Part shown: piece after piece, positions 1 to 3,000 of the stretch | How positions within the stretch are numbered: the first letter of the stretch is position 1 | Layout of the letters: every line of letters starts with the position of its first letter | IMG/VR virus record: IMGVR_UViG_2562617085_000008 | Source: a virus | Lineage: Duplodnaviria > Heunggongvirae > Uroviricota > Caudoviricetes | Direction: 5' to 3' (one strand) | DNA length: 64,000 nucleotides | Made by a program: the position numbers

Positions 1-3000
1 TGGCGACGCCGTGGCAGCACATATTTTGTATCAAAAGCCGGGGAGCGTTATCGCCGGGCAGTGGTGCTTATTGTTCGCCAGCAGCGACTGAAATTAAGCC
101 TGTCCGGACGGCTGGCAATAAAAATTATTGCAGAGCCACCGGATAAGCGTCGTCGTGACCTGGACAATATTCTGAAAGCACCGCTGGATGCGCTGACGCA
201 TGCGGGAGTGTTAATGGACGATGAGCAGTTTGATGAAATCAATATTGTACGTGGTCAGCCAGTATCTGGTGGACGGCTGGGTGTGAAGATTTACAAAATT
301 GAGAGTGAGTGAGCGTAAATATGATATATCCGGAAATTACAGGCAAAAGCGGCGAACATTTACGCCTGAACACGCTGGAAGCAGTCTGGATCCAGGGGAA
401 ATTACGGATGTGGGGGCGGTGGTCGTATATCGGTGGGGGTAAATCCGGAAATATGTTTAACCGGTTACTGGTTTCGAAAAAGCTGACGAAAACAGCAGTT
501 AATGAGGTTTTACGCAGCATGAAGAAATCCGGGCTGGAAAAACCGGAACTTGAGGCATTTTTTCGGGATATGACCAGAGGGAAGCAGAAGAGCTGGTTGT
601 CACATTGTACAGACACAGAGGCGTTGATTATTGATCGCGTTATCAGTGAGGTGCTTGGGGAATATCCCGGGCTAATCAATATTCTCCGGCAAAGGTACGA
701 AGGACGGGGAATGAGTAAGAGAAAAATGGCAGAATGTTTAAATCGTACTCACCCGGAATGGTGTTTCAGCACATGTGAGAAACGTATTGCAGGTTGGTTA
801 GCCGTGGCTGAACACATGCTTTATGTACCTATGCACGATTCATTTCGATAAAAAAAGCTTGCTTTTTTACGCAGAAACAGCTTGAATTCCTGTAAGCTTC
901 GCAAAGCTGTATCGCGAGGCGAAATGCAAGTTTTTTCGCACAAGGAAGCCACCGGAAGGTGGTTTTTTTGTGTCCGTAATATACAGCAGCGCAATAAATT
1001 CGCTGGTGGTTATTAATACCGTTCTTTCAGGTTGCTGGCTTTTTCGACAAGAGTTATTGGTGTGTCACGTTAACCGGAAAAGGGAAAAAGACATGCTGAA
1101 ACAGCAGGATATGACAGAAACCGCCAGAGTGGTGTTTAATGAATTAAGCGTTACCGACCCGGCGACAGTCGGGGAGATTGCGCAGAATACTTACCTTTCA
1201 CGCGAACGCTGCCAGTTAATACTGACCCAGCTGGTTATGGCGGGTCTGGCAGACTATCAGTTTGGTTGTTACAGACGCCTTCAGTCCTGAAGGCTTTTTT
1301 ATTTGTGGTAAATGGGCGGCTGGTGGGTGTAAGGGGCACCCACCAGCCATCTGCTCATGCGTTGGGTTCACAAGCAAACCTCAGGCCCACTGCTTTGCGC
1401 AAAAGCAGAATGAGCCTATCAGAGACAGGCTTAATGATCCATGCTTAATACTGTAAAAATATCCAGTTGTGAGTTAATCAACGCCGACTGCCTGGAATTT
1501 ATGCGGTCGTTACCCGAAAATTCTGTTGACCTGATAGTCACGGACCCGCCGTACTTCAAAGTGAAACCCGAGGGCTGGGATAACCAGTGGGCGGGTGATG
1601 AAGATTACCTGAAGTGGCTGGACCAGTGTCTTGCGCAGTTCTGGCGGGTGCTGAAACCTGCCGGAAGTCTTTACCTGTTCTGTGGCCATCGTCTGGCATC
1701 TGACACCGAAATCATGATGCGTGAGCGGTTTAACGTGCTGAACCATATCATCTGGGCAAAGCCGTCCGGACGCTGGAACGGGTGCAACAAGGAAAGCCTG
1801 CGGGCGTATTTCCCCGCCACAGAGCGCATTCTGTTCGCAGAGCATTATCAGGGGCCGTATCGTCCGAAAGATGCCGGGTATGAGGCGAAGGGTAGGACAC
1901 TGAAACAGCATGTGATGGCCCCGCTGATTGCTTACTTTCGTGATGCGCGCGCTGTCCTGGGGATAACGGCAAAACAGATTGCAGATGCCACAGGAAAGAA
2001 AAACATGGTGTCGCACTGGTTCAGTGCCGGTCAGTGGCAGCTGCCGAACGAAAGCGATTATCTGAAATTACAGGCACTGTTTGCCCGGGTGGCAGAAGAG
2101 AAGCATCAGCGGGGTGAACTGGAAAAGCCCCACCACCAGCTGGTGGATACGTATGCCTCTCTGAACCGACAGTATGCGGAGCTGCAGAGTGAATATAAGC
2201 ATCTGCGGCGGTATTTCGGTGTGACGGTGCAGGTGCCGTACACCGATGTGTGGACGTATAAACCGGTGCAGTACTATCCAGGGAAACATCCGTGCGAAAA
2301 ACCGGCAGAAATGTTGCAGCAGATAATCAGCGCAAGCAGTCGTCCGGGAGACCTGGTTGCAGATTTCTTCATGGGGTCGGGGTCGACAGTGAAAGCAGCG
2401 ATGGCGCTGGGACGTCGTGCAACTGGCGTTGAACTGGAGACTGAACGTTTTGAGCAGACGGTGCGGGAAGTACAGGATTTAATCATTCGTAACGGATGAG
2501 ATTGCGGAGTTAATCATGCGTCGTTATTATTCAGCAATCGGCCCTTTAGCTCAGCGGTGAGAGCGAGCGACTCATAATCGCCAGGTCGCTGGTTCAAATC
2601 CAGCAAGGGCCACCAACCGCCACTAGCTCATCAGGAAAGAACGTCACCCTGTGCGAGATTCGGAGTCCCCGGTGGCGGTCCATTATCGGTATTCTGCGTT
2701 GTTAGCTCAGCCGGACAGAGCAATTGCCTTCTAAGCAATCGGTCACTGGTTCGAATCCAGTACAACGCACCACACCACACTTATCTGCCCTGACTCTCTT
2801 TTGCGGGCTTTTTATTACAGGAAAGACACCGGACAGTGAAATGTTAAATGCCTCACAATTCAGGCAGTTGACTGTTGCCTGACATGCTGAGCGTTTGTTA
2901 AAAAAATCCTGCATGATGAATCCCCCTGAGCGGCGGGGCATAATGACAGATGTTTGGTTGCGTATTGTATAGGCAAGTTGCGGATTCTGTCTGGTCATTG

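Follow-up and report, generated by a model that had tools for sequence, protein, structure and literature searches.

How do two related prophages that lie side by side in one chromosome come to carry unrelated genes for the antiterminator Q, in the middle of a late-gene region that they otherwise share? The question is raised by a stretch of 64,000 nucleotides (IMG/VR record IMGVR_UViG_2562617085_000008; hereafter, the window), which corresponds over its full length to the TW14359 record NC_013008.1. The first 3.4 kb are 100% identical to many Escherichia coli O157:H7 chromosomes, for example that of TW14359 (NC_013008.1, from 1691958). The PGAP annotation of the surrounding 127 kb was used for the prophage layout. 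Between ompW and yciE, it shows a tandem of two lambdoid prophages, A and B, with the same orientation. Prophage A spans positions 1677974-1736245 of the record; the window opens within its rusA gene, and A ends at approximately 44288 of the window. Prophage B begins at 44289 and extends beyond the window end. Coordinates below are window positions, and features are on the plus strand, unless otherwise stated.

Lambdoid Q cassettes of the Q-lambda (PF03589), Q21 (PF06530) and Q82 (PF06323) types consist of the Q gene, the promoter pR', a Q-binding element, a sigma-dependent pause element and a terminator before the late genes. The three Q families are found at equivalent positions, have no sequence or structural homology and are functional analogues (Yin et al., PMC9388147; bioRxiv 10.1101/651190). 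It is very probable that A and B were acquired separately from the lambdoid pool, and that a non-homologous cassette with the same function took the place of the late-switch cassette. Prophage A is an Sp9-type prophage carrying effectors, and B a second, related prophage that is absent from O157 Sakai. The two are collinear mosaics with one of their joints at the late-gene switch.

Shared flanks and breakpoints

Positions 1-6000 of the window were compared with 54001-64000 by blastn. The left flank of A (1-294) matches 57882-58175 of B over 294 bp at 95.6% identity, and the flank that follows Q (992-2603) matches 59152-60763 over 1613 bp at 93.4% identity (E=0). Between the flanks lie 697 bp in A and 976 bp in B, for which blastn returned no match, and alignment of these two inter-flank DNAs with MAFFT gave only noise. 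The proteins encoded there, Q_A and Q_B, have no similarity (best BLASTP E=2.6). At both edges, identity falls from approximately 95% to random within a few bases.

The left edge lies inside rusA. The gene of A is cut by the window start, and its 3' part occupies 1..312, as identified by Pfam RusA, alignment and PGAP. It is homologous to B up to 294 and its last six codons are allele-specific. The rusA of B (57834..58208) encodes 124 amino acids (aa) and is homologous to A up to 58175; its stop codon overlaps the start of Q_B (ATGA). Divergence sets in 18 nt (A) and 33 nt (B) ahead of the respective stop codons. The shared post-Q block, 992..2603 in A and 59152..60763 in B, holds an open reading frame (ORF) of 65 aa, a second terminator and a methylase gene, and its identity per 100 bp ranges from 83 to 98%. 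Gene by gene, nucleotide identity between A and B is 95.6% for the shared part of rusA, 96.5% for the 65-aa ORF and 94.0% for the methylase. The methylases are 94.9% identical in amino acid sequence. Both of their ORFs are intact, and the codon differences are synonymous in 41 cases versus 18 that are non-synonymous.

A first-pass annotation of this DNA had proposed that both prophages share a near-identical late-regulatory module, at approximately 95% identity, in which unrelated Q alleles are set. The core of that proposal is borne out by the blastn and BLASTP results, and the rusA 3' ends do diverge at the breakpoint, as it had stated. Homology of the Q regions along their length, which it had named as the observation that would speak against it, was not found; nothing matches between the flanks. 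The level of identity holds for rusA, the 65-aa ORF and the methylase, which are shared at 93-96%, but the tRNA region is only partly shared. The terms near-identical and long identical stretches overstate the resemblance. The blocks are homeologous, and beside Q no exact run is longer than 74 bp.

The two Q proteins

Q_B (58205..59026) is a QuuQ-like protein of 273 aa. It matches PF03589 with 174.4 bits (cut-off 26.7), and phmmer aligns it to the Q-lambda of PDB entry 7UBM (E 1.1e-41), where residues 1-113 and 182-273 correspond to residues 1-113 and 116-207 of Q-lambda. The Q of B thus matches Q-lambda directly. Unlike Q-lambda, it contains a Cys-rich insertion of approximately 66 aa in the place where Q-lambda has its zinc-ribbon arm. 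CXXC motifs are located at 117, 171, 184 and 210. The insertion does not align to residues 114-152 of Q-lambda, and its match to a DnaJ-like CXXCXGXG motif is below threshold. By these matches, Q_B is a member of the Q-lambda family, and antitermination would be its expected activity. The Q_B cassette was found in 2,501 of the 5,426 complete genomes searched, and it occurs once in TW14359.

Q_A lies between the nin/rusA region and the late operon, and it corresponds to Sakai ECs_1778, which is annotated as a phage antiterminator. It had been reported as a 180-aa Q-like ORF. A Q-like gene is indeed present at this position, but the GTG at 309 was a mechanical choice of start; homologues and PGAP favour the ATG at 321, which gives a protein of 176 aa (321..851). 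In Pfam, Q_A matches DUF1133 (PF06576) with 367 bits and also, over residues 73-167, the Q21 family (PF06530) with 35.1 bits, above the cut-off of 26. PHROG 753, to which it belongs, carries the label Q-like. An AlphaFold2 model was built from an alignment of 29 homologues, a shallow set (at least 74% identity) that limits the quality of the model. When the model was compared with the PDB by Foldseek, ranks 1-11 were taken entirely by chains of Q21 (E 4e-4 to 1e-2, TM 0.52-0.69), after which came a match with an E of 1.4. By Pfam and by predicted fold, Q_A is a divergent member of the Q21 family and a putative antiterminator. Unlike canonical Q21, it is filed by Pfam under DUF1133, and its sequence resemblance to Q21 is weak. 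In the other direction, a canonical PF06530 Q found in the same flanks elsewhere (locus L007, below) scores 19 bits with the DUF1133 model, under the cut-off of 23.1.

The Q_A cassette was found in 1,222 of the 5,426 genomes and, like that of Q_B, is present once in TW14359. It was also observed that the cassette (295-991) is 100% identical in O157:H7, O26 and O111 genomes. Given this identity, either the Sp9-type prophage or the Q_A cassette may have spread horizontally among lineages of enterohaemorrhagic E. coli in recent times. Another observation concerns a Shiga toxin 2 (Stx2) prophage (NZ_CP073589.1, 152237-157325), which contains rusA, a DUF1133 Q, the methylase, ileZ-argN-argO and stx2AB, and whose 65-aa ORF protein is identical to that of B. 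Judging from this gene order, a protein filed as a domain of unknown function holds the Q position upstream of the Shiga toxin operon.

Promoters, pause elements and terminators

The 125 bp that follow Q_B include TTGATT-N16-TAAATT-N6-AACGAT. These elements make up a putative pR' at 59032..59071, with the -35 hexamer TTGATT at 59032-59037, the -10 hexamer TAAATT at 59054-59059 and the sigma-dependent pause element AACGAT at 59066-59071. The core, GGTAAATTTG..AACGATGGG, is equal in sequence and spacing to the stretch of lambda just downstream of Q, which we take to be the -10 element of pR' and the sigma-dependent pause element. The promoter core of B thus matches lambda pR', and the leader that follows it is, unlike that of lambda, only about 50-60 nt long. 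The tR' terminator of B (59109..59130), detected by terminator scan and RNA fold, consists of CCCGCC-GCCT-GGCGGG followed by a run of six T.

The sequence of approximately 85 nt after the Q_A stop codon is conserved in phage vB_EcoS-683R6; the Q of this phage is only 76% identical to Q_A, and its DNA further downstream shows no relation. Such conservation is the pattern expected of a cis site cognate to Q. The block at 852..935 is therefore a putative pR'/Q-binding/pause region of A. It holds repeated GCTT(G/C) motifs, a candidate -35 element (TTGCTT, 859-864), a -10-like element (TTGAAT, 882-887) and TAAGCT (893-898), a -10-like hexamer that may serve as the pause element. In the Q21 family, the Q-binding element is made up of two direct 8-bp subsites upstream of a sigma-dependent pause element, and no such pair of subsites could be assigned in the block of A. 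The block is followed by the tR' terminator of A (938..973), with a hairpin CCACC-GGAA-GGTGG at 949-962, a run of seven T, a fold of -35 kcal/mol and z = -4.7. The right edge of the swapped cassette in A is this hairpin. The promoter of B becomes clear only after alignment with lambda, and that of A is proposed because of the conservation.

A second intrinsic terminator was observed in the post-Q block. It is identical in A (1277-1294) and B (59437-59454), consists of GCCTTCAGTCCTGAAGGC and a T run, and overlaps the 3' end of the 65-aa ORF. As it is present in both prophages, late transcription must cross two terminators ahead of the methylase.

The swapped unit would then comprise the last codons of rusA, Q, the cognate late promoter together with the Q-binding site and the sigma-dependent pause element, and a short leader that ends at the tR' hairpin. 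In each prophage, Q translated from the early rightward transcript would load on RNA polymerase that has paused shortly after the pR' belonging to that Q; the part that pause elements play has been described (bioRxiv 10.1101/651190). Once loaded with Q, the polymerase would pass tR' and then the second terminator, and go on to transcribe the methylase, the tRNAs, the small RNA (sRNA) region and nanS-p, as well as the genes for lysis and morphogenesis. Because a Q would recognise its own site, promoter and protein would have to travel together, and so the breakpoints enclose both.

Other Q alleles in the same flanks

The stretch of B from DUF968 to the tRNA was used as a query. The full arrangement is present in 1,060 genomes, and many more genomes match the flanks alone, in two pieces. 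Three of these flank-only loci were examined in detail. In L006, the flanks are 98% identical to B, the methylase protein is identical, and a Q82-family Q (PF06323) of 229 aa lies between them. L007 carries a canonical Q21-family Q (PF06530) of 126 aa and has no rusA; its DUF968 region is 89% and its post-Q region 96% identical to B. L008 carries a Q82-family Q and two extra ORFs, with DUF968-rusA 89% and the post-Q region 86% identical to B.

Four Q types are thus found within flanks formed by DUF968-rusA on one side and the 65-aa ORF and methylase on the other. Where rusA is present, the left breakpoints are at B 58161-58175. The right breakpoints, in four comparisons, are at B 59109-59152, at or just past the tR' hairpin, which is where homology of B with the other loci resumes. 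The breakpoints of the other Q alleles lie within about 45 bp of those between A and B. Modular exchange of the antiterminator, as had been proposed, is supported by the different and unrelated families, by the cassette edges and by these alternative alleles in the same flanks.

Origin of the cassettes and possible exchange between the prophages

The Q regions might instead be orthologous and have evolved beyond recognition. They do occupy the same position, in non-homologous segments of similar overall size (697 versus 976 bp). This explanation has practically no probability left, as it is refuted by the abrupt breakpoints, at which some 95% identity gives way to random within a few bases on either side, and by the different folds. 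Pfam places the two proteins in different families, Q21 structures alone are matched by the Q_A model, and Q-lambda and Q21 have no structural similarity (PMC9388147). It could also be that one prophage was copied from the other in this chromosome, B from A or A from B, and that one Q cassette was replaced later. The tandem arrangement, the common orientation and att site, the nearly identical integrases and the identical excisionase proteins are what such a duplication would leave. However, identity in the shared blocks is 76-98%, most differences being synonymous, there is no relation between the two immunity regions or between the head genes, only A is present at ompW in Sakai, and the closest relatives of the B flanks occur in other strains with a different Q (L006). 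These observations fit two separate acquisitions, and a duplication in situ is very improbable.

The flanks had also been proposed as substrates for recombination between the two prophages. Chimeric Stx phages formed by Sp5 and Sp15 in O157 Sakai have been obtained experimentally (Asadulghani et al. 2009, PMC2669165), and co-resident lambdoid prophages share highly homologous sequences on both sides of stx, from the P gene to stx and from stx to nu1 (PMC2669165). The Sp5/Sp15 case involves the same neighbourhood as the A/B flanks and supports cassette replacement; chimeras were observed there, whereas no A/B recombinant was found in 5,426 complete genomes. For this pair, the proposal is reasonable in principle and plausible, with a precedent. 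Further, the blocks beside Q might be recombining between A and B now, by deletion, duplication or gene conversion, which would make the locus unstable in the population. Consistent with this are direct repeats separated by 58 kb, which in the post-Q block include six exact runs of at least 50 bp, a 686-bp stretch in the hok-DUF968 block that is 100% identical, the experimental Sp5/Sp15 chimeras through equivalent flanks (PMC2669165), and a packaging-to-tail segment of A that differs from Sp9 and whose edges coincide with the edges of A/B homology blocks. Such ongoing exchange is nevertheless improbable. A synthetic query that joins the Q_A cassette to the downstream region of B has no contiguous match in the 5,426 complete genomes, where rare events in subpopulations are invisible; the best matches are loci in several pieces with extra tRNAs, stx2 or TerB inserts. 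In every block, B is equally diverged from Sakai Sp9 and from A (92.22%, 93.37%), which argues that there was no conversion since those lineages split and no recent conversion between A and B. If A and B recombine, the Q flanks would be the least likely place, as they appear to be the poorest substrates of the pair. The post-Q block (1.6 kb, 93.4%) has a longest exact run of 74 bp, compared with 708 bp in the int block (2.5 kb, 97.7%) and 871 bp in the tail block (7.7 kb, 97.4%).

Several points weigh against separate acquisition and exchange of a complete late switch. When the two cassettes were scanned with the sigma-70 consensus, neither gave a promoter. The promoter of B reaches 8/12 in that scan, just under threshold, and the -10 candidate of A is without the conserved A at position 2. 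Similarity of Q_A to the Q21 sequences of the PDB is marginal by phmmer (E=0.14), which led to the alignment, structure prediction and fold search described above. The model obtained is moderate (mean pLDDT, the predicted local distance difference test score, 66.6), being confident in the C-terminal half and poor in the N-terminal half. In addition, the direction and timing of the exchange are not readable from two sequences. Taken with these points, the observed pattern of homology and its breakpoints, the families to which the two Qs were assigned, the lambda-like pR' in B, the terminators of both prophages and the other Q families in the same flanks still make this the very probable history, one in which each Q would act at its own site and the cassettes would have been exchanged by recombination in the conserved flanks.

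The 686-bp stretch was found at B 55839-56524 and at 1689918-1690603 of the record in A, upstream of the window. The hok-DUF968 block is otherwise 80-92% identical, and the stretch spans an identical hypothetical protein, WP_000984523.1. A recent conversion between A and B was considered as its source and rejected. Sakai Sp9, which has no B partner, is equally identical to B, and the stretch is thus older than the split between Sakai and TW14359.

A more speculative and rather doubtful reading is that Q/pR' pairs of differing specificity are selected in co-resident prophages, especially tandem ones, and that the rusA 3' end and the tR' hairpin act as fixed recombination linkers that make swaps frequent. 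If this were true, induction of one prophage would not fire the late operon and lysis genes of the other. The single copy of each cassette in TW14359 and the clustering of the breakpoints bear on this reading. As a corollary, DUF1133 proteins may be a fourth working subgroup of Q with its own binding site, and may drive stx2 in some strains of Shiga toxin-producing E. coli.

The finding is real and its main interpretation right, and it is classical lambdoid mosaicism, already known and ordinary. Mosaic joints that fall at the boundaries of genes are textbook knowledge. The mutual resemblance of O157 lambdoid prophages has been described (PMC2669165), as have tandem or nested prophages at ompW (PMC8112680). 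Mildly useful additions are the link from DUF1133 to the Q21 fold, the exact cassette boundaries common to four Q types, and a dead hybrid tRNA in B. In practice, the DUF1133 protein of unknown function in Sp9-type prophages can be regarded as a predicted antiterminator of Q21 fold, which is also located upstream of stx2 in some strains.

Genes and RNAs downstream of Q

The late region of Stx phages of the 933W or Sp5 type runs from Q through pR'/tR', a small ORF, the methylase, ileZ, argN and argO, stx and nanS-p to the lysis genes. The order is the same in A and B, and some of the proteins are the same. Unlike Stx phages, A and B have no stx. Prophage A has two tRNAs and a truncated nanS-p, and B has one dead hybrid tRNA and an intact nanS-p. 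By gene content and order, A and B are stx-less versions of the Stx-phage late region.

The 65-aa ORF is located at 1093..1290 in A and 59253-59450 in B. It was called by PGAP and falls in PHROG 331, with a weak Pfam match to a TrmB-like winged helix. The putative N6/N4 DNA methyltransferase (PF01555, E 2e-43) is at 1441..2499 in A, and the methylase of B is at 59601-60659. Two tRNA genes follow in A. An ileZ-type tRNA with anticodon CAT (2540..2615) is called Met by ARAGORN and Ile by PGAP and in Sakai, where it is ileZ3. A tRNA-Arg (UCU) of the argO type (2696..2772) is identified by ARAGORN, the Sakai annotation and Rfam.

Prophage B contains a single pseudo-tRNA of 76 nt (60700..60775), in which the 5' part of ileZ is joined to the 3' part of argO at CTGGTTC. 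It lacks the approximately 157 bp that separate the homologous T-arm positions of the two tRNAs of A, and it was formed when the interval between the two T-arms was deleted at CTGGTTC. Its acceptor stem is unpairable (5' GGCCCTT versus 3' ACAACGC) and U33 is changed to G. ARAGORN gives no call, and the Rfam tRNA model matches in part (model positions 7-64, 37 bits). Without a paired acceptor stem and U33, the hybrid would not form a proper cloverleaf and is predicted to be dead. PGAP annotates it as a 71-nt tRNA-Met; in practice, the dead hybrid of B is reported as a tRNA by annotation pipelines. The same hybrid is found in L006, which comes from an unrelated strain, and the deletion is therefore old.

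Between the tRNAs and nanS-p, both prophages carry two sRNAs identified by Rfam, STnc100 on the plus strand followed by the anti-GcvB sRNA AgvB on the minus strand (2882-3151 in A, 60851-61106 in B). STnc100 scores 175 and 145 bits. AgvB scores 96.5 bits in B and 56.6 in A, which is just at threshold. Between A and B, identity in this sRNA block is only about 76%. The 2026 paper on the HnrS sRNA (PMC13502914) was examined for any connection with the Q cassette, and none was found in it.

The DUF1737/DUF6645 gene that comes next (3296-4116 in A, 61254-63200 in B) presumably holds the nanS-p position of Stx phages. It is intact in B, with 648 aa. The copy in A is a pseudogene in which 1,024 bp are missing relative to Sakai Sp9 (Sakai 1774927-1775952).

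Prophage layout

Prophage A carries paa and the effector genes nleA, nleH1-2, nleF, nleG and espM1. It is Sp9-like, being 99.9% identical to Sakai Sp9 from int through the Q region. Sakai has Sp9 alone at ompW, and B is thus an additional prophage of the TW14359 lineage. An assignment of B to Sakai Sp10 was considered and rejected, as Sp10 is located at the Rac site (PMC2669165) and only Sp9 is present at ompW in Sakai. It is also unlikely that either copy is a product of misassembly. The 3.4-kb stretch of A recurs with 100% identity in at least 15 further complete genomes, as does the B cassette in at least nine others. Tandem prophages with 7.7-kb blocks at 97% identity are a known assembly hazard and a potential source of deletions.

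Over their whole length, A and B are collinear mosaics. Identity is 97.7% in int/xis, 95.6% in cro-P, 92.2% in hok-rusA, 93.4% in the post-Q block and 97.4% in the tail, and the immunity, Q and head regions are unrelated. An ompW-like att remnant between the two prophages (44039-44288) is 81% identical to the remnant at the right end of B. Prophage B may have integrated in an att-like site of A itself, rather than forming a simple tandem. An ompW-like attB carried inside prophages (attB-in-PP_3) has been reported to be 81% identical to ompW (PMC8112680). There too, a lambda-like prophage with effectors occupies ompW and a second phage is found at the ompW-like attB within the first (Nakamura et al. 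2021, PMC8112680). The topic of that study is att sites and effector accumulation, and the Q cassette is not its subject.

In the early region of B, Rfam identifies the sok antitoxin RNA, with hokD, at 55620-55794 and the DicF sRNA on the minus strand at 48838-48889. In A, the segment from terminase to J (6866-24785) is unrelated to its counterpart in Sakai Sp9, and both of its flanks are at least 99% identical to Sp9. It looks like a recent replacement of an 18-kb morphogenesis module in one O157 lineage, and the difference between such similar flanks indicates that large module replacement has happened in this prophage lineage. The edges of the segment coincide with edges of the A/B homology blocks (6865; 24784/24786).

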